Shown one piece after another: positions 10,320-20,816 of a DNA stretch of 64,000 nucleotides (the first letter of the stretch is position 1; every line of letters begins with the position of its first letter). Source of the stretch: Myxococcota bacterium. Lineage in GTDB: Bacteria > Myxococcota_A > UBA9160 > UBA6930. Position numbers and translations under genes: made by a program. The notes below the pieces were generated by a model that did no database searches, was not told the origin of the DNA, and saw only the letters and a program-made list of their open reading frames with translations. The stretch lies in NCBI GenBank assembly GCA_965223705.1, contig OZ245015.1, positions 2,976,001 through 3,040,000 of the forward strand, read 5' to 3'.

Positions 10320-12149
10320 CTAGCGGTGGTTCGCCGGCGGAAGCCACGTCGCCCCGATCTTCACCGTGTAGGTGCTGGGGTCGTCGTTCATGTTTTCCCC
10401 CTGGTAGGGGCCAATCCGCGCGATCCCGCTTCCGTCGACGTGCGGTGACGCTCCTGGACAGCCCGCTACGGGTGTGTTGACTCCGGTGCAGAAGCGAATG
10501 TCATCCGGGGCGGCGGGCGTCCCGCCGTTGCACTTGTTGTCGCCCGTGTACTGGCAGACCATCCGAGGGTCCGAATCGTTGTTGCCGCTGGCGTAGGATA
10601 GGCCGTTCAGGTTCGCGATCCCGGCCGGCGCGTTCGGCGTGTTCGCGTTGACGTTGGCGGTCGTCGCGCCTCCGCAATCGATATAGGTGCCACCACCTCT
10701 GTGGCTCTCCCTGACGTAGCTCCCCAACCTGTCGTCGACAAACCAAATCGCGTTGTCGTCGATCGATCTGGGCTGGTTGTTGATGTGCGAATACCAGCGG
10801 ACCAAATAGTCGCCAACGTCGAGAAAAACGTTTCCGTCGTACTTGGCGTTTACGTTCTGTCGATGGTCAGTATTCGTCCGGTCGCATGAGGCTTCCGCAG
10901 TGTCGCCGTTTTGGAACCCTTGTCGGGCCCGATAAATGAGGTTGTAGCGGTAGGTCTGATCATCGGACCCGAAATTCGTCGTGTAGGCGGTAAAACGAGT
11001 TCCCGTTGTTTGACTCCAGTAGAGGTTCCTCTCCCACAGTCCGACATTCGCGTCCTCGTCGTGGCCCGCCCCCTGGAACTTCGAAACACCGATGTGGTCA
11101 TTGCAGGACGCGCCTCCATTCAGGACGTACATCTCGTTCCTGGCGAAAGTAAAGTCGTGGTTGTCCCTCTTCGGGAAAACGAAGTCCCAGCCATTATTCG
11201 TTTCCGTGGATGGATCGCAGACAGCGAACGTGTTGTTCGACACGTCCATACCCACACCATTGTACGAACGCACACCGGCCCAAGACTTGCTGGGTCGGTT
11301 GGGATTGACGCCCACCCGCGCGAAGTAGTTGTATTTCGCGGTCGCCCCGTCGGACACGCCGAAATAGACGGAAGAATCGTTTCCCGATCCCCTTGCGGTG
11401 TAGTCCGACTCGAGCGAGGAAGCGAAGTAGTTCCATTCGACCCGAATCGTCTTGTCCTGAGTACCGACTCCAGATCCCCAGGCCCAAAAACCAGCTCTCT
11501 CGATCGTGCCTCTTTCGCCAAATCGGAAGCCGTACCATTCTCCGGCGGCTCGGGCTCGAGAATCGTTCGTGTCGATCTCAGGAATGGGTCGGTCATTGCC
11601 TGAAATCAGCGCGGTCGCTTCAAAGGCCGCGTCGCTCCCTGCGTTGAGAGGAGCCGCGGGATAGCCGAAGTTCACCATGCCCTGCGTCGGGGATGTGCTG
11701 AGTAGCGGACCTTGATTCCAAGCGGTCGCGGCGCTGCGCCCATCGATGAGCGTGTAGTTGCTCGGGACCTTCTTCCAGCAAACCGTACGAACGCCGTTGC
11801 CCCACAAGTCGATCCAGTTCGCATTGCTTGCGGCGTTGATGCCGAGGAGCTGCTCGTTGTAGTCGTAGGGATCGTCGAAAGAGCCTGTGTTCGAGGTGCC
11901 TCCGTCGTCCGCCACCCAGGCGATGCTGGAAGGCGTGTCGTCCTCGCCATCCGTGGCGTCCTCGAGGCAGGTGGTGTCGTAGGAGGCCGGAAAGCCAGTC
12001 GCGGCAGCCCGCTCCACGACAGGAGGCGGCGGCGGCGCGCCCTGGGTAGCGAGCTGGGGACGGCCCGGGGGGCCAATCTGAGCGATTGCTCCCGCTCCGA
12101 TCAGGAGTCCTAGAGCGAGAACGGGAAATACGACCAAACGCGGCGTCAT
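10320..12149 (-). CDS. Secreted Asn/Gly/Thr-rich protein with a probable right-handed beta-helix
   Basis: GGAGGG RBS before ATG 12149, a signal peptide, a Pro-rich linker, periodic Asn-ladder motifs (EWNYF, KYNYF, SNNTF, ARNEM, ERNLY, RYNLI, DGNVF, DDNAI) and a Cys-rich C-terminus. Confidence 0.65.
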   Translation of the reverse strand: MTPRLVVFPVLALGLLIGAGAIAQIGPPGRPQLATQGAPPPPPVVERAAATGFPASYDTTCLEDATDGEDDTPSSIAWVADDGGTSNTGSFDDPYDYNEQLLGINAASNANWIDLWGNGVRTVCWKKVPSNYTLIDGRSAATAWNQGPLLSTSPTQGMVNFGYPAAPLNAGSDAAFEATALISGNDRPIPEIDTNDSRARAAGEWYGFRFGERGTIERAGFWAWGSGVGTQDKTIRVEWNYFASSLESDYTARGSGNDSSVYFGVSDGATAKYNYFARVGVNPNRPSKSWAGVRSYNGVGMDVSNNTFAVCDPSTETNNGWDFVFPKRDNHDFTFARNEMYVLNGGASCNDHIGVSKFQGAGHDEDANVGLWERNLYWSQTTGTRFTAYTTNFGSDDQTYRYNLIYRARQGFQNGDTAEASCDRTNTDHRQNVNAKYDGNVFLDVGDYLVRWYSHINNQPRSIDDNAIWFVDDRLGSYVRESHRGGGTYIDCGGATTANVNANTPNAPAGIANLNGLSYASGNNDSDPRMVCQYTGDNKCNGGTPAAPDDIRFCTGVNTPVAGCPGASPHVDGSGIARIGPYQGENMNDDPSTYTVKIGATWLPPANHR

Positions 12150-12365
12150 AATGCCCTCCGTGCGTGAGCCTCGCGCGAATAGATCGCATTCGTCGCGATT
12201 GAACTGCGTACGTCTCGTCACTACTTAGAAGGAACCTGAGGTCTCGAAGTTGCAGCTTTGACGCAGATCGGCGTCTAACGTCCCGAACCGCCACGGAAGA
12301 CCCCTCACCTGGGTTTCGCGCGGTTTAGCGCCCATCCGCGCGGTTTTCTTCGAGGCGTCGCGCGG

Positions 12366-12587: not shown

Positions 12588-13550
12588 CTAGTTCGCGACC
12601 AGGGCGCCGCCGCAGCTCGAACCGGCCCCTGCCGTACAGCCGAAGCAGTGCGCTCCGGTCCCGATTGGCTGGCCCGCCAGTTCTCGCAAATCGTCGACGT
12701 CGAAGATGGTCCTTCGGCGGCCCGGGAATGGAATCTCGAGCATCTGATTGAAATCGCAATCCCAGAGCGAACCGTCGTAAGCGACGGAGACGAGCTCGCG
12801 ACACATCACTCCGGCGAGGGTCTCCGGGTTAAAGTGATTGATTAAGAGGCTCATATAAGCCTCGAATTCCCCGTCCCTCTCGAGCGAGTGAGCAAACCGG
12901 CTGATCGGCATGTTCGCGATTGCGATCAGCCGGTTGAAGCGGATCCCGAAGGCCCGATCGAGCTCTTCGCGGTAGGTCGCCTCGAGCTCGTCCTCGGCGG
13001 GCGGGAGACTCCCGCCTTGGGGGTTGTACACGAGGTCGAGGCTGAGCTCGGGGTCGCGGCCGTACCCCAGCCGATTGAGCGTCTTCAGCGCGTCGACGCT
13101 TCGCCCGAAGACGCCCTTTCCGCGCTGGCGCTCGACGTTTTCGAGGCTGTAGCACGGGAGGGACGCCACGATGGCGACGCCTTGGTCCGCGAGAAACTCC
13201 GCAGTGTCCTCCTGGCCGGGTTCGTAGAGCACCGTCAGGTTACACCGATCGATCACGCGCTTTCCGAGCTGGCGCGCGCCGCGGACCAAACGGCGAAACC
13301 GTGGATGGAGCTCCGGCGCGCCGCCGGTTACGTCGAGCGTCTCGACGCCGGAGCTGCTCGCGAGTAGTTCGAGGACGCGCTCGATTCCGCGAGCGTCCAT
13401 CGCCTCGGTTCGCTTGGGGCCGCTCTCCACATGACAGTGGTGGCACGCGAGGTTGCAGCGCTTCCCGATGTTGAGCTGCAGGGTTCGGACCCGACCTCGG
13501 ACAAGCTCGGGCAGACCCCGTTGCTCGAGTTCTCTGGCAAAGGCGTTCAA
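12588..13550 (-). CDS. arsS: ArsS-family radical SAM protein (arsenosugar-biosynthesis type)
   Basis: CNLACHHC (CxxxCxxC), TGGAPE, IDRCNL, ASLPCY, DCDFNQ and HCFGCTAGAGSSCGG. TTG 13550 overlaps the upstream stop; ATG 13571 is an alternative start. Confidence 0.88.
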   Translation of the reverse strand: MNAFARELEQRGLPELVRGRVRTLQLNIGKRCNLACHHCHVESGPKRTEAMDARGIERVLELLASSSGVETLDVTGGAPELHPRFRRLVRGARQLGKRVIDRCNLTVLYEPGQEDTAEFLADQGVAIVASLPCYSLENVERQRGKGVFGRSVDALKTLNRLGYGRDPELSLDLVYNPQGGSLPPAEDELEATYREELDRAFGIRFNRLIAIANMPISRFAHSLERDGEFEAYMSLLINHFNPETLAGVMCRELVSVAYDGSLWDCDFNQMLEIPFPGRRRTIFDVDDLRELAGQPIGTGAHCFGCTAGAGSSCGGALVAN

Positions 13551-14719
13551 CAGCAACCTTCGGGGCCGCATGCCGCACCCGGGTCGACGGTCGCTCGATA
13601 CTCGGCGCCTTTCGTCTCTCGGGGATCGCGGCGGGTGGTGCGACTGCAGTCAAATAGCGCTCGCTCGCCCTCGGGTATCGGGTCGCGTGGCGCGATCGAG
13701 ATCAAGTCGTCGCCGTAGGGCGAACTCGTCAGGATCTTGTGCGTCTTCGCGCAGACCGCGACGCGCTCGCCTCGCTCGAGGACATGGCCGTCGTCGTCTT
13801 CGACGCGCTTCCAGGGTCCGCGATACATCACGGCCTCGTTCGCCTCGTAGCAGGGTCCCTCCTTGCCTTTCGAAGCGGTCACGGTGACCGATCGGAACTC
13901 GATGCCCTCGACGACCGCGAAGGGTTCCTCGGCGAAGCTCTCGATCGCGATGCCGTAGAAACCCGCCGCCTCGAGCGACCGCAAGAAGCCGCGTTCCTCG
14001 AACGCGCCCGAAATGCATCCGCTCCACAGGGCGGGGTCGTTCTTCAAATGATCCGGAATCGGCTCGTCGCTCACGATGTCCGAAATCGCGATTCGTCCGC
14101 CGACGCGGAGAACGCGAAAGATCTCGCGGATGAGCGTCTCTTTGTCCTGCTCGCGGACCAGGTTCAACACGCAGTTCGACACGACGAGATCGACCGAAGC
14201 GTCGGGAATCATCGGATCGCGTCGGCGAAGCTCGTCGCACACGGCGGTCAAGGCATCGAGGTCGCGGCTGCTGGTTACGGGATTCGCGCGCAACCATTCA
14301 TCGACGCGGTCCATGTCGAGAGCGAGGTCCTGGATACGTCCACGCCGAAATTCGACGTTCGCGTAGCCGACGCGCTCAGCGACGACCGGTGCAGCGCCGC
14401 GCGCCAGCGCCAGCATTTCGTCGGTCATGTCGACGCCGATTACGCGACCTTTGGCGCCGACCACCTGGGACGCGATGAAGCAGATCTTGCCACCGCCACT
14501 TCCGAGGTCGAGAACGGTGTCGCCTTCGCGGGCGAAGCGCGAAGGATCGCCGCAACCGTAATCCCGCTCCAAGACGTCTTCTGGGATCACCTCGAGGTAG
14601 CGGGAGTCATAGTCCACGGGACAACAGAGGCTCGGTTCCTGGGCCCCGGCGGCGGCGCTGTAGCGCTGACGGACGGCGTCTTCCGCCGAAGCCGTGGGTG
14701 TGAGGTGCTCGCTGGTCAT
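13547..14719 (-). CDS. arsM: ArsM-like SAM-dependent arsenite methyltransferase
   Basis: LCCP, YGCGDP, DLGSGGG, SNCVLNL, WSGCISGA and C-terminal ACGPEGCC. GGAGG RBS before ATG 14719; coupled to arsS. Confidence 0.8.
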   Translation of the reverse strand: MTSEHLTPTASAEDAVRQRYSAAAGAQEPSLCCPVDYDSRYLEVIPEDVLERDYGCGDPSRFAREGDTVLDLGSGGGKICFIASQVVGAKGRVIGVDMTDEMLALARGAAPVVAERVGYANVEFRRGRIQDLALDMDRVDEWLRANPVTSSRDLDALTAVCDELRRRDPMIPDASVDLVVSNCVLNLVREQDKETLIREIFRVLRVGGRIAISDIVSDEPIPDHLKNDPALWSGCISGAFEERGFLRSLEAAGFYGIAIESFAEEPFAVVEGIEFRSVTVTASKGKEGPCYEANEAVMYRGPWKRVEDDDGHVLERGERVAVCAKTHKILTSSPYGDDLISIAPRDPIPEGERALFDCSRTTRRDPRETKGAEYRATVDPGAACGPEGCC

Positions 14720-14807
14720 GTGTTCCTCCGCGGCGGTCCGCTGAGAATACAGCGTCGCAGATTCCGCCGAGAAAGATACGCTCGGGGCCGGAGGAGGTTT
14801 CGCCAAA

Positions 14808-16019
14808 ATGGCCGATACAGCGAGCCCGCGACGCGCCCTGGTCTTGTCGGGAGGTGGCGCGCGGGGGGCCTATGAAGCAGGGGTACTCTCGTACGTGTTC
14901 GAACACGTCTTCCCCGAGTGCGGCCCCGACGGCGAGTTCGAGATCGCGAGCGGTACCTCCGTGGGCGCGATTCACGCGGCCTACACTACGGCGACGCGCG
15001 GGATGCCCGGCCCGGCGCGTGCGCGCGGACTCCTCGAAGCCTGGGAGTCGATGCGCCTCGCGGAGATGCTGACGCTGCGGGCCTCGGATTTGTGGCGCAT
15101 CCCCTTGCGCGTATTCGGGCTGCGGAGCGAGCGCGCCGTATCGGGACGCACGCTCGGAGGACTCGTCGACGTCTCGCGGCTCGAAGATCTCGTCACGGGA
15201 CGCATCCCCTGGGACCAACTTCGCGAACGCCTGGAGACCGACCGGGTCGCGCTGTGCGTTTCGTGCACGGAAGTCCGCAGCGGCCAGGTCGTGGTCTTCA
15301 TGGCGGGCCAACTCGCCCAGGAGGACGCCTGGGCCTTCGACCCGAACGCCCGGGCCGTGGCCGGCCGGGTCGACCCGCTCCACGTGCGGGCGTCGGCCGC
15401 GATCCCTTTCTTGTTCCCGGCCGTTCGAATCGGCGAGCGCTACTACGTCGATGGGGGGCTTCGGATGAATACGCCGCTCTCCCCGGCCCTGCGGCTGGGC
15501 GCGGACCGGGTCTTCGTCGTGTGCCTGAGGCACCCGCCGAGAGCCGACGAAGACCGGCCTGCGTACCCGGAATCCGCCGTGACCTCACCGGCTTTTCTGC
15601 TGGGCAAGGTGATGAACGCCTTGACACTCGACCAGCTCGAATACGACCTGAAGCGCCTCGAGTTGGTCAACAACATGATCACGCAGGGAGAAGCGGTCTA
15701 CGGCGCCGATTTTCTCGAGCGCATGAACGTCGCGGTCCGCGCCCAGCGCGGGGCCGGCTACCGCCCCGTCGACGCCGAGGCGCTGCGCCCGAGCGAGGAT
15801 TTGGGGGCGCTGGCCGCGGCTTGCTTCGAGCGGGAATCCGCCTCGATGGGCACGGTGGCCCGGTGGCTCGGGCGCGTAACGATCCACGAAGGCGGCCGGG
15901 AGGCCGATCTGCTCTCCTACCTCCTGTTCGATCGCTGCTACACGCGCCGGTTGATCGAGCTCGGTCGCGAAGACGCCGCCGCACGCGCGGATGCGATCCG
16001 GAACCTGCTCGAGACTTGA
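14808..16019 (+). CDS. Patatin-like phospholipase
   Basis: GGGARG oxyanion motif, GTSVG nucleophile, ASAAIP and DGG. Confidence 0.92.
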   Translation: MADTASPRRALVLSGGGARGAYEAGVLSYVFEHVFPECGPDGEFEIASGTSVGAIHAAYTTATRGMPGPARARGLLEAWESMRLAEMLTLRASDLWRIPLRVFGLRSERAVSGRTLGGLVDVSRLEDLVTGRIPWDQLRERLETDRVALCVSCTEVRSGQVVVFMAGQLAQEDAWAFDPNARAVAGRVDPLHVRASAAIPFLFPAVRIGERYYVDGGLRMNTPLSPALRLGADRVFVVCLRHPPRADEDRPAYPESAVTSPAFLLGKVMNALTLDQLEYDLKRLELVNNMITQGEAVYGADFLERMNVAVRAQRGAGYRPVDAEALRPSEDLGALAAACFERESASMGTVARWLGRVTIHEGGREADLLSYLLFDRCYTRRLIELGREDAAARADAIRNLLET

Positions 16020-16066
16020 CCGGCTGCCGTCGTTGCGGCGAAGCTTCGGCTCGAGGAGCCACCGTT

Positions 16067-17875
16067 TTGGGAGATACAGCGATCCCGGCAGGCCCGCAGC
16101 CGGCGTGCGATCCGCGCGATGTCATCCACCCCGCCGCGACTCCGCCGCGGGAAGATGATCTCGAAGCGACCTCGGTCTGGGGTTTTCGCGACAGCGCTTT
16201 CTCGGTCAACGCCCGCGGCCACGTGGAATTCTCGGGCGATCGCTACGCCATCGCCGGGCAAGAGCTGACGGAGCTTCTCCCCTGGATGGCGAAGACCCTA
16301 AAGGTCGATCTCGATCCCGCAGACCGATTCCCGCGCGCATCGAGCCAGCCGGTTCCCGACCCGCGAGCGTCCTCCGAGCTGTTGGCCGAGTTCGCGAAAG
16401 CCCTCTCGCCCGAACGGGTCTGCGTCTCTCCCGAGCGCCGGTTGCGCTGCTCTCATGGGCACACCCAAGACGAGATTTTCGCCTTGCATACCGGCGGGTT
16501 GAAGAGAATCGTCGACGTGGTGGTCGAGCCCGCGTCCCGCGCGGAGATCGCCGCCGTGCTCGAGCTTTCGCGAGAACACAACGCGTGCGTCGTGCCCTAC
16601 GGCGGCGGGACGAACGTCACGCTGGCGCTCGCTCCGCCACCCGGTGAAGCACGGACCTGGGTCGCGCTCGATCTCCGTCGCATGAATCGCGTTCGCTGGA
16701 TCGATCCGCGCAACCGCCTGGCGTGCATCGAGGCCGGCGCCGTGGGCCGTACGCTCCAAGCGACGCTTGCCGAGCACGGATTCACGTTGGGACACGAGCC
16801 CGACAGCATCGAGTTCTCCACGCTCGGCGGGTGGATCGCGACCGCAGCCAGCGGCATGAAGAAAAACCGTTATGGGAACATCGAGGACCTCGTCGTCGAC
16901 GTCGAAGCGGTGACGCCGAGCGGCACTCTCGGGCGTGCGCGGTCCGCGCCGCGTGAGTCCGTGGGAAACGATCCGGCGAATTGGCTGATCGGGTCCGAGG
17001 GCTCCCTCGGCGTCATCACCTGCGCTGTGGTGAAACTCTTTCCCCTGCCCGAGGTGAAGCGCTACGCCTCCGTCGTCTTCCGGGATTTCGGAAGCGGGCT
17101 GGGCTTCATCGAAGCCTTAAACGCCGAGGGCGACCTTCCCGCGAGCGTGCGACTCGTCGACAACCTGCAGTTCCAGTTCAGCCAAGCGCTGCGTCCGCAA
17201 AGCCACGGCTGGCGAGCCCGCAAGCGACAACTCGAGCGCTGGTTCGTCACCCGGGTGAAAGGATTCGAACCGGATCGAATGACCGCCTGCACCCTGGTGT
17301 ACGAAGGCAGCGCCTCGCACGTGAGGCACCAGGAGAAGCGTGTAGCCCGTCTGACGCGACAGTTCGGCGGTCTCGCCGGGGGCGCCGAAAACGGCGAACG
17401 GGGCTACCAGCTGACGTTCAGCATCGCGTACATCCGCGACTTCGCCCTGCAGCACTTCATTCTGGGCGAGTCGTTCGAAACATCGGTCGCGTGGAGCGAT
17501 CTCGAAAAGCTCTGCGAGAACGTGAAGCAGCGGCTCTACGCCGAACACGACAAGCGGGGCCTACCGGGCCGCCCGTTCGTGACGTGCCGGGTGACGCAGC
17601 TCTACGACACCGGGGTGTGCGTCTACTTTTACTTCGCGTTCCATTTTCAAGGTGTCACGCAACCTTCCGAATTATTTGCTGAAATTGAACGAGCGGCGAG
17701 GGATGAGATTCTCGCCAGCGGGGGCTCGCTCTCCCATCACCACGGCATCGGAAAACTTCGAGCCGGCTTTCTCGATCGGGTCTTTTCGGGCGCCGCGCTG
17801 AGATTTCGGCGTGAGCTCAAACATCAAATCGATCCCGAGAATCTGCTCGGTGCGGGGAACCAAGGGCTCTCGTGA
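16067..17875 (+). CDS. Alkyl-dihydroxyacetonephosphate synthase (AGPS)-like FAD oxidoreductase
   Basis: WGFRDS, PYGGGTNV, GHEPDSIEFSTLGGW, ASGMKKNRYGNIED, GESFETS, CRVTQLYDTG.CVYFYF and GGSLSHHHGIGK. GAGGAG lies 8 nt before TTG 16067. Confidence 0.9.
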   Translation: MGDTAIPAGPQPACDPRDVIHPAATPPREDDLEATSVWGFRDSAFSVNARGHVEFSGDRYAIAGQELTELLPWMAKTLKVDLDPADRFPRASSQPVPDPRASSELLAEFAKALSPERVCVSPERRLRCSHGHTQDEIFALHTGGLKRIVDVVVEPASRAEIAAVLELSREHNACVVPYGGGTNVTLALAPPPGEARTWVALDLRRMNRVRWIDPRNRLACIEAGAVGRTLQATLAEHGFTLGHEPDSIEFSTLGGWIATAASGMKKNRYGNIEDLVVDVEAVTPSGTLGRARSAPRESVGNDPANWLIGSEGSLGVITCAVVKLFPLPEVKRYASVVFRDFGSGLGFIEALNAEGDLPASVRLVDNLQFQFSQALRPQSHGWRARKRQLERWFVTRVKGFEPDRMTACTLVYEGSASHVRHQEKRVARLTRQFGGLAGGAENGERGYQLTFSIAYIRDFALQHFILGESFETSVAWSDLEKLCENVKQRLYAEHDKRGLPGRPFVTCRVTQLYDTGVCVYFYFAFHFQGVTQPSELFAEIERAARDEILASGGSLSHHHGIGKLRAGFLDRVFSGAALRFRRELKHQIDPENLLGAGNQGLS

Positions 17876-19977
17876 CACGGACCGTCCTGTTGAGCGGAGC
17901 TACGGGCTTCGTCGGAAAGGTCCTGCTCGAACGCCTCCTCGCGGAGCGCGAAGCGCTCGGGATCGAGCGCGTGATCGCGCTCGTTCGCGCGCACGACGAC
18001 GATGCGGCACGCGCGCGGCTCGAACACGAGGTGCTCTCCTCGGAGTGCTTTTCGAGACTGCCCGCCGAAGCCAGATCGCCGGTTGCGGCCGCGGCCTTCG
18101 ATCTGACGCTCCCGGAGCTCGGCCTCTCGGCCGAAGCACGGCGCGACATCCTCGAACACGTCACGCACGTCCTCCACGGAGCGGCCTCGGTGGAATTCGA
18201 GCTCCCTCTACGCGAAGCCGTACAGATCAACGCCGAAGGCTCTCTCGCGATGCTCGAGCTCGCGGAGGCGTGTCGACATCCGGTGGTCTTCGGTCTCATT
18301 TCGACGGCTTACGCGACACCTCACCAAACCGGCGAGATCGCAGAGGATCGGCTCGCTCCCCTGCCGCGACCCGCGCGCGCGCTCTACGAGGACAGCCGGG
18401 CCGTCGGCGACGAAGCGCGCGCGCTTGCCGAGACCGGTCATCCGAACACCTACACGTGGAGCAAATGCTTGGCGGAGCATCTCGTCGCCGAGCGCGCCGA
18501 GCGCTCTCGGGTGCGTATCCTGCGGCCGAGCATCGTTTCCGCTTGCTCGGAGCGACCGTTTCCCGGCTGGATCGACAGCGGCGCCGCGTTCGCAGGCTTC
18601 GTCACATTGCTCGGCACGGGACAACTGCGCGCCGTCTGTGCACGACCGGACGTGCAGCTCGACATCGTTCCGTGCGACCGGGTCTGCGAGGAAGCGATCG
18701 CGCTCTGCTTCGAGGACGATCCTTCCGCGTGCGTCATCCGGCACGCTGTGGCCGGCTCGGCGGGGTCGCTTCCGATCGCGATGTGCCGCCGCGAGATCGC
18801 TCGGTTTTTCCTCCGTTTCCCCGTCGGCCTCGGACCCCGCATCCGCTTCGTCGGCCCCGACGGATTGCGCTTTCGGATCGCCGACTGGCTGTTTCACGAA
18901 GTCCCGTTTCGGTTGCGCGGAGCGTTCTCCTCCTTGCGCGGCGACGCCGTCCGCGCCGGCGCGGCGCTGCGGAGCCTCGACCGCGTGCGCCAGCTGAACC
19001 GAACGTTCCATCACTTCACCCATCGGGAATTCACTTTTCGAACGGAATCCGCGCGCGACCTGGGCGGATCTCGCGAGCGGTACCTCGAAATCGTGTGCCG
19101 GGGGGTGTACCGGCATCTGTTGCGGCGCGACGATTCCGAATGCCCCATCGCCGGCTCCGAAGCTCCCCGGTCCCTACCGGTTCCGATTCGGGATCGCTTC
19201 CGAGTCGGTTGGCTCCGCGCCGCGCTCCGCCGGGTGGCTCCGCTCGTCACTTACGAGCCCGGCGGCCTCGAGAAGGCGGTGTCCGATCTCGGGCGAGCGC
19301 CCACGGTCCTTCTGACGTCGCGGACGGGCGGGTGCCTCGATGTCGCGATCGTTCGCCTGCTCGTGTCCCTGCGACCTGAACTCGGCCTTCTCCACCTGCG
19401 AGAAGTGCAAGACGCGGCGGGGCTGCAAGCTGCACTCCGCGCGCATGAGACGCCGGTGCTCGCGGCCTCGAGCGACACGCGGGCCGCGGCGGAAACGATC
19501 CGAGTCGCCGGCAGCCCGATCACCGTGCTTCCGATTCCAATTCATTTCGAACACCCGCTTCCGAACGACGCCGCTCCCTTGCGGATCCGCGACGTCTTTT
19601 TCAGAGCGATGCCCCGGGTCGGCCGCATTCACGCTCGCTGCGGTGCACCTCTGACGATCGAAGGCAGCGCCGAGCCCGGGACTCTCACCGCGCGACTCGA
19701 TCAAGCGTTGCGCCGCGCCGCGCCGCTCTCGAGCCAGGAGCTACGGTCTTTCGTGCGCGCTCAGCGCATCGACGTCCACCCGGGTCGGCTCGCCGAGGCG
19801 TTGCGACGCCGGGGTGAGCAGGTACTCCGAACGCGCTCCGCGGGAAATGACTCAGACGCGTTTCCGCGCTTTCTGTGGCGCCTCGCGCCGACGTCGACCC
19901 GACCGGCCGACGGAGCGGATGAGGACGCTCCGGAGCTCTGCGCGTTTCACCAAGCCCTACGGACCGGTTGGCCCTAG
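17872..19977 (+). CDS. Fatty acyl-CoA reductase fused to a degenerate glycerolipid acyltransferase-like domain
   Basis: FAR motifs GATGFVGK, HGAASVEF, STAY, PNTYTWSK, RPSIV, PFPGWID and DIVPCD. C-terminal PTVLLTS....LD, VLPIPIHFE and GRIHARCGAPL resemble PlsB/GNPAT blocks. GTGA overlap with the AGPS stop. Confidence 0.8.
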   Translation: MTRTVLLSGATGFVGKVLLERLLAEREALGIERVIALVRAHDDDAARARLEHEVLSSECFSRLPAEARSPVAAAAFDLTLPELGLSAEARRDILEHVTHVLHGAASVEFELPLREAVQINAEGSLAMLELAEACRHPVVFGLISTAYATPHQTGEIAEDRLAPLPRPARALYEDSRAVGDEARALAETGHPNTYTWSKCLAEHLVAERAERSRVRILRPSIVSACSERPFPGWIDSGAAFAGFVTLLGTGQLRAVCARPDVQLDIVPCDRVCEEAIALCFEDDPSACVIRHAVAGSAGSLPIAMCRREIARFFLRFPVGLGPRIRFVGPDGLRFRIADWLFHEVPFRLRGAFSSLRGDAVRAGAALRSLDRVRQLNRTFHHFTHREFTFRTESARDLGGSRERYLEIVCRGVYRHLLRRDDSECPIAGSEAPRSLPVPIRDRFRVGWLRAALRRVAPLVTYEPGGLEKAVSDLGRAPTVLLTSRTGGCLDVAIVRLLVSLRPELGLLHLREVQDAAGLQAALRAHETPVLAASSDTRAAAETIRVAGSPITVLPIPIHFEHPLPNDAAPLRIRDVFFRAMPRVGRIHARCGAPLTIEGSAEPGTLTARLDQALRRAAPLSSQELRSFVRAQRIDVHPGRLAEALRRRGEQVLRTRSAGNDSDAFPRFLWRLAPTSTRPADGADEDAPELCAFHQALRTGWP

Positions 19978-20816
19978 ATCGCGATTCGGGCAGGCGGCGC
20001 CGGCAGACCGGGCGTTTCGACCCGTGTCCGAAGCAAACATCCGTCGAGTGCGCCTTCCGTGTGGTCGGCGGTGACGACAAAGAGATCCCGCAGGTCTTCG
20101 CCGCCGAAGCACAAGCTCGTGACCGCTCGCGATGGAACCGTCAGGGTTTCTACGTGGCGGCCCGACGCGTCGAAGTGGTCGATCCCCCCACCGTCGTAGT
20201 TCGCGACCCAGACGTCCCCGGCGCGGTCGACGGCGAGCCCATCGGGCAGTCCGCGGGACAACTTCGCGAAGACGCGCCGCCCGCTCACCTCCCCGTTTTC
20301 CGCAGCGTCGTGGAGGATGATCGCTCCATCGGCCGAATCGCTGTGGTAGAGCTTGCGGCCGTCGGGCGAGAAACCGATGCCGTTCGTCAGGCCGACGTCG
20401 CCGTAGAGCTCCTCGACGGAGCCATCCAAATCGATCCGATACAGCTCGCCCGGAATGCGATCCTTCCCCTGGTCGAAGGGATTCGAGCGCAACGAGCCGA
20501 CGTAAACGCGACCGGTCTCATCGGCGAACAGGTCGTTGAATCCCCCGACCTCCGGAATTTCCAGCAAGATGGTGGTCACGCCATCGCGAACATGGCAGAT
20601 GTTGCGACCCGACATCACGAGGCCACCGTCCGCGTGGAGTGCGATCCCACCGACCCCGCGCCGTTTGGGAACCACGGTCGCGACGCCGCCGGACTCGTCG
20701 ACGGCGTACACGCCGCCCCGTGTGACGTCGGCCATGAAAAGAGCGCCATCGCGATAGCGGGGTCCCTCGAGCAGGCCGAAACCGTGAGCTAAGACGTCGA
20801 ACTGCGGTGTCGTCAT
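19974..20816 (-). CDS. SMP-30/gluconolactonase/LRE family protein
   Basis: EGP, FND, NGIGFSPDG, PDGLAVD and SLCFGG motifs. Confidence 0.9.
   Translation of the reverse strand: MTTPQFDVLAHGFGLLEGPRYRDGALFMADVTRGGVYAVDESGGVATVVPKRRGVGGIALHADGGLVMSGRNICHVRDGVTTILLEIPEVGGFNDLFADETGRVYVGSLRSNPFDQGKDRIPGELYRIDLDGSVEELYGDVGLTNGIGFSPDGRKLYHSDSADGAIILHDAAENGEVSGRRVFAKLSRGLPDGLAVDRAGDVWVANYDGGGIDHFDASGRHVETLTVPSRAVTSLCFGGEDLRDLFVVTADHTEGALDGCLLRTRVETPGLPAPPARIAI

Follow-up and report, generated by a model that had tools for sequence, protein, structure and literature searches.

The closest described relative of the locus analysed here is an operon of Myxococcus xanthus. As published, it holds MXAN_1676, an alkyl-dihydroxyacetone phosphate (alkyl-DHAP) synthase (AGPS) about 42% identical to the human enzyme, MXAN_1675, in which a fatty acyl-CoA reductase (FAR) is joined to a GNPAT-like region, and MXAN_1674 (PMC9131029), a NAD-dependent epimerase/dehydratase (PMC9131029, PMC13012113). 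Deletion of MXAN_1676 is described as lowering ether lipids slightly, ElbD being the main route of M. xanthus (PMC9131029). We analysed a stretch of 64,000 nt (the window) of contig OZ245015.1 from a Myxococcota bacterium (assembly GCA_965223705.1; genome G000), in which three open reading frames (ORFs) called on the same strand at 14808-19977 encode a patatin-like phospholipase, an AGPS homologue and a protein of 701 residues that begins as a putative FAR and ends in an eroded acyltransferase domain. We consider it probable that AGPS and FAR make ether lipids by the chemistry known from animals and myxobacteria, with the fused acyltransferase dead and acyl-DHAP supplied by an acyltransferase encoded elsewhere in the genome.

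The AGPS-FAR pair itself is a published kind of system. The full pathway is reported from 73 bacterial genomes, Myxococcota accounting for 61, and a transfer of PEDS1 and of FARAT, the FAR-acyltransferase fusion, from Myxococcota to an early eukaryote is argued in the same source (PMC13012113; preprint 10.1101/2025.10.10.681575); the phylogenetic signal of AGPS is described there as too small (10.1101/2025.10.10.681575). Homologues of agps have also been noted in other bacteria (PMC13159169; 10.64898/2026.06.23.733905). The supplementary tables of PMC13012113 include bacterial AGPS and FAR sequences, with PlsB-like proteins of ~800 residues among the GNPAT matches, and in 12 of its 15 supplementary files the terms degenerate, truncated and PlsB gave no match. 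An earlier note, made from the letters of the window, had proposed an ether-lipid module of eukaryotic type, with relevance to how the peroxisomal pathway arose. The nature of AGPS and FAR was read correctly, the novelty was not: a bacterial module of this type, and its bearing on that origin, are already in print, and the locus adds little to them. The eroded acyltransferase appears to be the new part: in a literature search that left most subscription journals outside its reach, neither eroded FARAT domains in bacteria nor the small acyltransferase family discussed below turned up.

By homology, the FAD protein encoded by the middle gene is an AGPS, an assignment over the oxidases made by score rather than by a tree with eukaryotic sequences. 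Its 602 residues match mammalian AGPS (4bby) at 541 bits (E 2.9e-161) and Dictyostelium ADPS (2uuu) at 280 bits, against 99.5 bits for glycolate oxidase and 77 bits for D-lactate dehydrogenase; the GlcD model gives 141 bits with a cut-off of 568. Scores and motifs thus rule out a glycolate or D-lactate oxidase, and the earlier identification as a eukaryote-type AGPS is borne out, every FAD-enzyme motif then quoted being found in the protein. H243, R362, R457, Y520 and H557-H558-H559 are all present; the three histidines form a loop that we take to have a role in AGPS. Among 120 near homologues, R362, R457, Y520 and H557-559 are invariant and H243 is kept in 119. R362 and Y520 align with the residues that differ in two deposited variants, 4bc7 (R419H) and 4bca (Y578F), and R362, R457 and Y520 correspond to Dictyostelium R352, R447 and Y508 (numbering shifted throughout by 3 relative to the deposited chain 2uuu), which are named as catalytic residues (PMC3509576). 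Near homologues of named source are assigned to Myxococcota, Myxococcales or Deltaproteobacteria, labels that point to a probable Myxococcota-related host. As many as 3616 of the 8000 candidates scored pass E 1e-100, so AGPS homologues form a large bacterial family. G000 encodes two further full-length FAD oxidases (G000:C1:3435354-3436904 and 837479-838993), ~28-29% identical to AGPS, which are putative members of a more distant AGPS-like group.

The N-terminal half of the 701-residue protein (17872-19977) is likely a FAR, as the earlier note had proposed from its full set of motifs. Pfam places NAD_binding_4 (PF07993) on residues 7-273 with 196.7 bits, the motifs GATGFVG, STAY, Y194-x3-K198, RPSIV and GWIDS are in place, and the best PDB match is the fatty acyl-CoA reductase 7eoz (E 9.9e-25). 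FARs are expected to carry a C-terminal Sterile domain (PF03015); Pfam reports none for this protein or its 120 homologues, and residues 280-420 align with intact FARATs. The FAR domain is 35-52% identical to AGPS-adjacent FAR domains at other loci, and every one of the 12 genomes in the family (33 genomes) that have this FAR has it beside AGPS. Elsewhere, genomes G032 and G036 hold an AGPS and have no match to this FAR.

The C-terminal half lacks key motifs of an acyltransferase. PF01553, the Pfam acyltransferase family, has no match on the protein. A profile built from the C-terminal domains of 23 intact FARATs and two stand-alone ones does recognise residues 421-701, with 42.7 bits (E 3e-14) as compared with 525-709 bits for its 23 full-length intact domains, and its matches form two blocks in the correct order (residues 448-506 and 582-659). 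These blocks, together with the placement of the FAR among intact FARATs in the tree, indicate that residues 421-701 descend from a FAR-acyltransferase fusion. In motif I, HRSYxD has become TSRTGGCLD, the His being replaced by Thr485 (19324-19326) and Asp490 retained; in the alignments, motif II (AFYxxR, of the FxxRR-like type) and motif III (FxEGxRSR) are deleted in frame or unrecognisable. With 701 residues against 760-960 in intact FARATs, the protein has a C-terminal domain ~70-200 residues shorter. Motifs such as the HX4D of motif I are given as defining the acyltransferase family (PMC4207751), and changing the motif-I His to Ala is reported to inactivate Xenopus Gnpat, as changing the motif-III Arg to Ala inactivates Gpam (PMC10204775). 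Because the motif-I His and motifs II and III are lost, this half is predicted to be a catalytically dead relic, and the acyltransferase function given to it in the earlier note falls away. Our preferred view of the protein is that it stands midway from the FARAT fusion of 760-960 residues to the FAR-only form, of ~430 residues, seen in its relatives; annotators would label it a bifunctional FARAT, though its second half is predicted dead. An assembly error is ruled out, since contigs of runs X1 (14500-20300), X4 (15051-20300) and X3 (16987-19981) agree letter for letter, with 0 differences and 0 gaps; run X1 may be the source, X4 is from the same sample and X3 from a second sample of the same study. 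AlphaFold2 run on residues 421-701 without an alignment was uninformative (predicted local distance difference test, pLDDT, 33), and the GC content at third codon positions of the remnant (0.75) differs too little from that of the FAR domain (0.79) to be of use.

These losses bear directly on the claim of a compact, self-contained module of three genes, in which the C-terminal domain would be an active acyltransferase and the patatin a conserved part. The genes are indeed tightly spaced and translationally coupled, the C-terminal domain is a homologue of the FARAT acyltransferases whose 281 codons are still in frame, and the order patatin-AGPS-FAR is kept in two congeners. Nevertheless, the catalytic His and motifs II and III are gone, those same congeners lack the domain entirely, and of 80 named AGPS loci, 68 of them with 1300 nt or more of upstream sequence, 1 has the patatin next to AGPS. 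We hold this reading to be highly improbable. Co-conservation of the three genes, chosen beforehand as a test that could refute the module, was found for AGPS and FAR (adjacent in 30 of the 80 loci) and not for the patatin. Among relatives, the patatin stands beside AGPS in 2 of 12 AGPS loci, both of the window's genus; its homologues occur in 31 of 41 genomes, many of them without AGPS, and are unlinked to it outside the genus. A conserved partner in ether-lipid synthesis is thereby ruled out; at the level of the genus the patatin is a neighbour, either passenger or accessory, that lies outside the conserved module.

The predicted-dead domain looks like one step in a repeated loss. Ten of the family's 12 FARs are FAR-only and stop 409-431 residues past the NAD-binding motif, one is cut by a contig end, and only the window's protein has a C-terminal tail. 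A separate FARAT-type GNPAT gene was searched for, and no FARAT-type acyltransferase was found anywhere in 26 family genomes or in G000. The 120 best database matches, query included, comprise 81 FAR-only proteins (a class set by length and score, some members of which may be cut by contig ends), 34 intact, 4 eroded (the window, P0131, P0147 and P0192) and 1 partial; the nearest homologue, P0125, is 73% identical and labelled partial. Two Spirochaetota loci likewise carry eroded acyltransferase domains. On a FAR-domain tree of 43 of 158 rows, the intact/lost label needs 7 changes, at least 4 of them forced by starred branches, and a history with a single change occurs in 0 of 200 bootstrap trees; the approximately unbiased (AU) test on 27 rows (LG+G4) rejects a topology that unites all lost forms in one clade (p 1.3e-5). 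Rows were hand-picked after a first FastTree tree, which held four rows left out of the later trees, namely the acyltransferase-only L016 and L030, a truncated row and a partial row; one duplicate was left out of all trees. The root was not inferred, and it is the decayed motifs that lead us to read the changes as losses and not as gains. The window's FAR groups with its FAR-only congeners at 93/97, a placement to be taken with caution for long branches. Across the order, 33 of 45 AGPS genomes lack a FARAT-type acyltransferase, so supply of acyl-DHAP in trans is common, and surveys that require a GNPAT match will miss or mis-score most of its AGPS genomes.

Other arrangements were seen as well. 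In three Binataceae loci (L016:2163-3668, L030:8840-10327 and L032:6296-7786), AGPS is followed by a stand-alone FARAT-type acyltransferase of ~500 residues without a FAR domain, the opposite half-loss to that of the window. On a 7-kb contig titled Candidatus Poseidoniales archaeon (L014:3-5525), a FARAT with HRAFLD, a NAD-dependent epimerase and AGPS make up the gene set of the M. xanthus operon, with a catalase-peroxidase adjoining; this is either a real transfer or mis-binning.

What ether lipid would the pair make? Among the PF01553 and PF07993 matches of G000 (95% complete) there is no ORF of the size of ElbD, a single large protein that combines FAR, ACS, ACP and acyltransferase domains, and no PF01553 match that coincides with a PF07993 match; the only strong PF07993 match is the window's FAR gene, and PF01869 has no match over its cut-off in this genome. 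With no ElbD-like protein and no PF01869 match, AGPS and FAR may be the organism's only ether route. The sole PF10520 match of G000 is a homologue of the CarF/PEDS1 desaturase family (C1:2596113-2596631, L119), which scores 129 bits against NF045946 (cut-off 500) and for which a PDB search returned no relative. At the position Phe+13 (mouse H131, that is F118+13; M. xanthus H113) it has Gly; 12 of 15 CarF homologues have His there and 2 have Arg, these being in G030 and G035, the two relatives with an intact FARAT. According to PMC9131029, a ninth His separates true PEDS1 from plant and alphaproteobacterial homologues, plant FAD4 having Arg. Because the only CarF homologue lacks the ninth His, alkyl (plasmanyl) ethers are the likelier end product, rather than plasmalogens.

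The same observations could be taken to mean that the ether pathway is decaying, the acyltransferase having been lost first, FAR being retained to make fatty alcohols or wax esters, and AGPS being due to follow. The eroded domain, the CarF homologue without its ninth His and the patchy presence of AGPS (45 of 146 genomes of the order) would all fit, as would the AGPS of the FAR-only congener G002, which is split over two frames near codon 500 through either assembly error or decay. However, crude dN/dS values from 7 pairs each of FAR-only relatives are far below 1 (0.14-0.29 for AGPS, 0.20-0.31 for FAR), which indicates that both genes remain under purifying selection, and GHEPDS, AYIRD, CxYFY and SHHHG are kept in 7 of 8 FAR-only lineages. 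Moreover, the 81 FAR-only near homologues fall mostly in one large clade, so that the state appears old and stable. Decay of the whole pathway therefore seems quite unlikely, and a working AGPS-FAR pair remains our preferred reading.

Where does the acyl-DHAP come from? With the acyltransferase half predicted dead, it would have to come in trans. FAR, judging from its family and motifs, would convert acyl-CoA to fatty alcohol; an unlinked candidate acyltransferase would acylate DHAP; AGPS, by analogy with its structural homologues, would exchange the acyl for the alkyl chain on its FAD; and some unlinked short-chain dehydrogenase/reductase (SDR) would reduce alkyl-DHAP. G000 encodes 8 PF01553 proteins, in frames of 250-870 residues, and to two of these as candidates we give somewhat less than an even chance each. 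One is a 251-residue acyltransferase with NHLTxIDS and FPEGxRSR (G000:C1:419031-419783), whose gene closes a fab cluster and is followed by an acetyl-CoA-carboxylase-like gene. Genes 35-42% identical to it lie within the AGPS locus in 18 of the 80 named loci, 17 of these from Acidobacteriota, mostly Blastocatellia families, and usually in the order AGPS-acyltransferase-SDR; a Blastocatellia example adjoining AGPS lies at L042:8842-9597. None of the 18 has a FARAT-type domain; 27 other loci have one. Locus L041 brings together the small acyltransferase, an SDR, AGPS and a convergent NAD_binding_4 gene. Among the 146 genomes, the small acyltransferase is found in 32 of the 33 AGPS genomes without a FARAT-type acyltransferase and in 6 of the 12 with one. 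Fisher tests on its distribution give p 0.0007 and 0.008, for genomes whose kinship makes them not independent, and in two FARAT-keeping families it is mostly absent, with or without AGPS (0 of 5 and 3 of 14); the association is thus a lead, not proof. Its cluster in G000 (C1:413086-425990, L209) runs through two SDRs, FabH-like and FabA-like genes, a ketoacyl synthase and the acyltransferase to a carboxylase of ~2000 residues that joins biotin carboxylase, biotin carrier and carboxyltransferase in one chain, a eukaryote-like acetyl-CoA carboxylase layout.

The other candidate is a PlsB-like enzyme of 870 residues (G000:C1:3821036-3823645), which scores 419.5 bits with the plsB model (cut-off 618.5); PlsX and PlsY were not found in G000. 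Motif I reads H[RK]SYFD in 20 of 20 copies, and the Tyr form is listed for DHAP acyltransferases in an opisthokont table that is a weak guide here (PMC4207751). A second PlsB-like paralogue, present in many relatives, was considered as a dedicated enzyme and set aside, not being found in G000, G001 or G004. Loss of GpsA as the reason for acylating DHAP is ruled out by two PF07479 genes. The outcome is a short list of candidate enzymes for the acyl-DHAP step, one of them from an uncharacterised family. We tentatively raise the possibility, which we think unlikely as it stands, that this family of ~250 residues is an unrecognised, non-PlsB bacterial DHAP acyltransferase that, in any genome possessing it, makes the acyltransferase half of FARAT redundant, so that this half decays repeatedly, in several lineages, and that the window is a half-way snapshot. 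If true, the family would fill the missing step of AGPS operons in Blastocatellia and other FARAT-less bacteria, and AGPS with FAR would be the only ether route of an ElbD-less lineage, a bacterial parallel to the animal FAR/GNPAT split.

Supply in trans need not involve a DHAP acyltransferase at all if AGPS acts mainly in exchange or salvage. An acyl-DHAP reductase working in reverse would then oxidise lysophosphatidic acid to acyl-DHAP or, in this genus, the patatin would form it by transacylation; some patatins have transacylase activity. In line with this, a search of the genome found no dedicated GNPAT, patatin and AGPS are coupled within the genus, and an unlinked SDR (C1:3973732-3974487) is 33-40% identical to AGPS-adjacent SDRs elsewhere. 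Identity at that level, though, is not diagnostic among SDRs, and FAR-only lineages beyond the genus have no linked patatin, so we regard exchange or salvage as unlikely and keep to an unlinked acyltransferase as the preferred source.

Besides the split AGPS of G002, several observations weigh against our interpretation. When 8 additional AGPS loci of the order were sampled, seven (L210-L215 and L217) had no FAR alongside, nor a FARAT or small acyltransferase in the neighbourhood, so the two genes do not go together in every case, and the AGPS/FAR route is described as only minor in M. xanthus (PMC9131029). Genomes that lack AGPS often have the small acyltransferase too (77 of 101), its gene in G000 sits in a fatty-acid synthesis cluster, and it may equally well be an ordinary sn-2 enzyme acting after the reductase. 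The PlsB-like enzyme, present in 39 of 41 genomes, is a housekeeping one, and our literature search found no paper on the use of DHAP by bacterial PlsB-like enzymes.

Table 1. Features of the AGPS-FAR locus, in window coordinates
Feature	Position	Strand	Basis
Patatin-like phospholipase, 403 aa	14808..16019	+	PF01734 88.4 bits; GGGARG, GTSVG, DGG
AGPS homologue (FAD_binding_4 + FAD-oxidase_C), 602 aa	16067..17875	+	TTG start; Pfam
FAR domain (likely), residues 1-420 of 701-aa protein	17872..19131	+	PF07993; GATGFVG, Y194-x3-K198
Eroded GNPAT-type acyltransferase domain, residues 421-701 of 701-aa protein	19132..19977	+	FARAT profile

The layout of the locus (Table 1) was described exactly in the earlier note: three co-oriented genes, a gap of 47 nt between patatin and AGPS (16020-16066) and an overlap of AGPS and FAR genes by GTGA (17872-17875). 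GAGGAG at 16053-16058 precedes the TTG start of AGPS. By Pfam, the neighbours are a divergent methyltransferase upstream and a convergent gluconolactonase-family gene downstream (19974-20816, minus strand), which the stop of the 701-residue gene overlaps by 4 nt. A scan for promoters and terminators gave no signal exceeding that of shuffled sequence. The minus-strand stretch at 12588-14806, divergent from the patatin, encodes a Cys-rich-motif S-adenosylmethionine (SAM) methyltransferase of 419 residues together with a radical SAM/DUF3641 protein, two genes that resemble the ArsM-like plus ArsS pair; beyond this stretch, at 10320-12221 (minus), a 633-residue protein, probably secreted, has no Pfam match and lies in a stretch of lower GC.

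How does the locus compare with the known systems? Relative to mammalian AGPS (4bby, 4bca and 4bc7), R419, R515, Y578 and H615-617 have their counterparts in R362, R457, Y520 and H557-559, and the bacterial protein, aligning only from mammalian residue 81 on, is without the long N-terminal leader. The comparison with M. xanthus rests on published descriptions of its operon and on the 23 intact FARATs. With MXAN_1676-1674 the locus shares an AGPS adjoining a FAR with a C-terminal GNPAT-like region and, by inference, the same chemistry; it differs in that its acyltransferase is eroded, a patatin lies upstream and no epimerase gene is found in the flanks. At the level of the genome, no ElbD was found here, and the ninth His, an essential one, is missing from the CarF homologue. 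Eukaryotic FARATs, as described for Tetrahymena and Dictyostelium, have the FAR N-terminal to the GNPAT-like domain, as here (PMC7375469, PMC13012113). The split FAR and GNPAT of Holozoa offer a likeness of another kind, from fused to separate enzymes (PMC7375469, PMC13012113). There, fission is inferred and both halves are kept, whereas in the window's family the acyltransferase half appears to have been destroyed and then lost.

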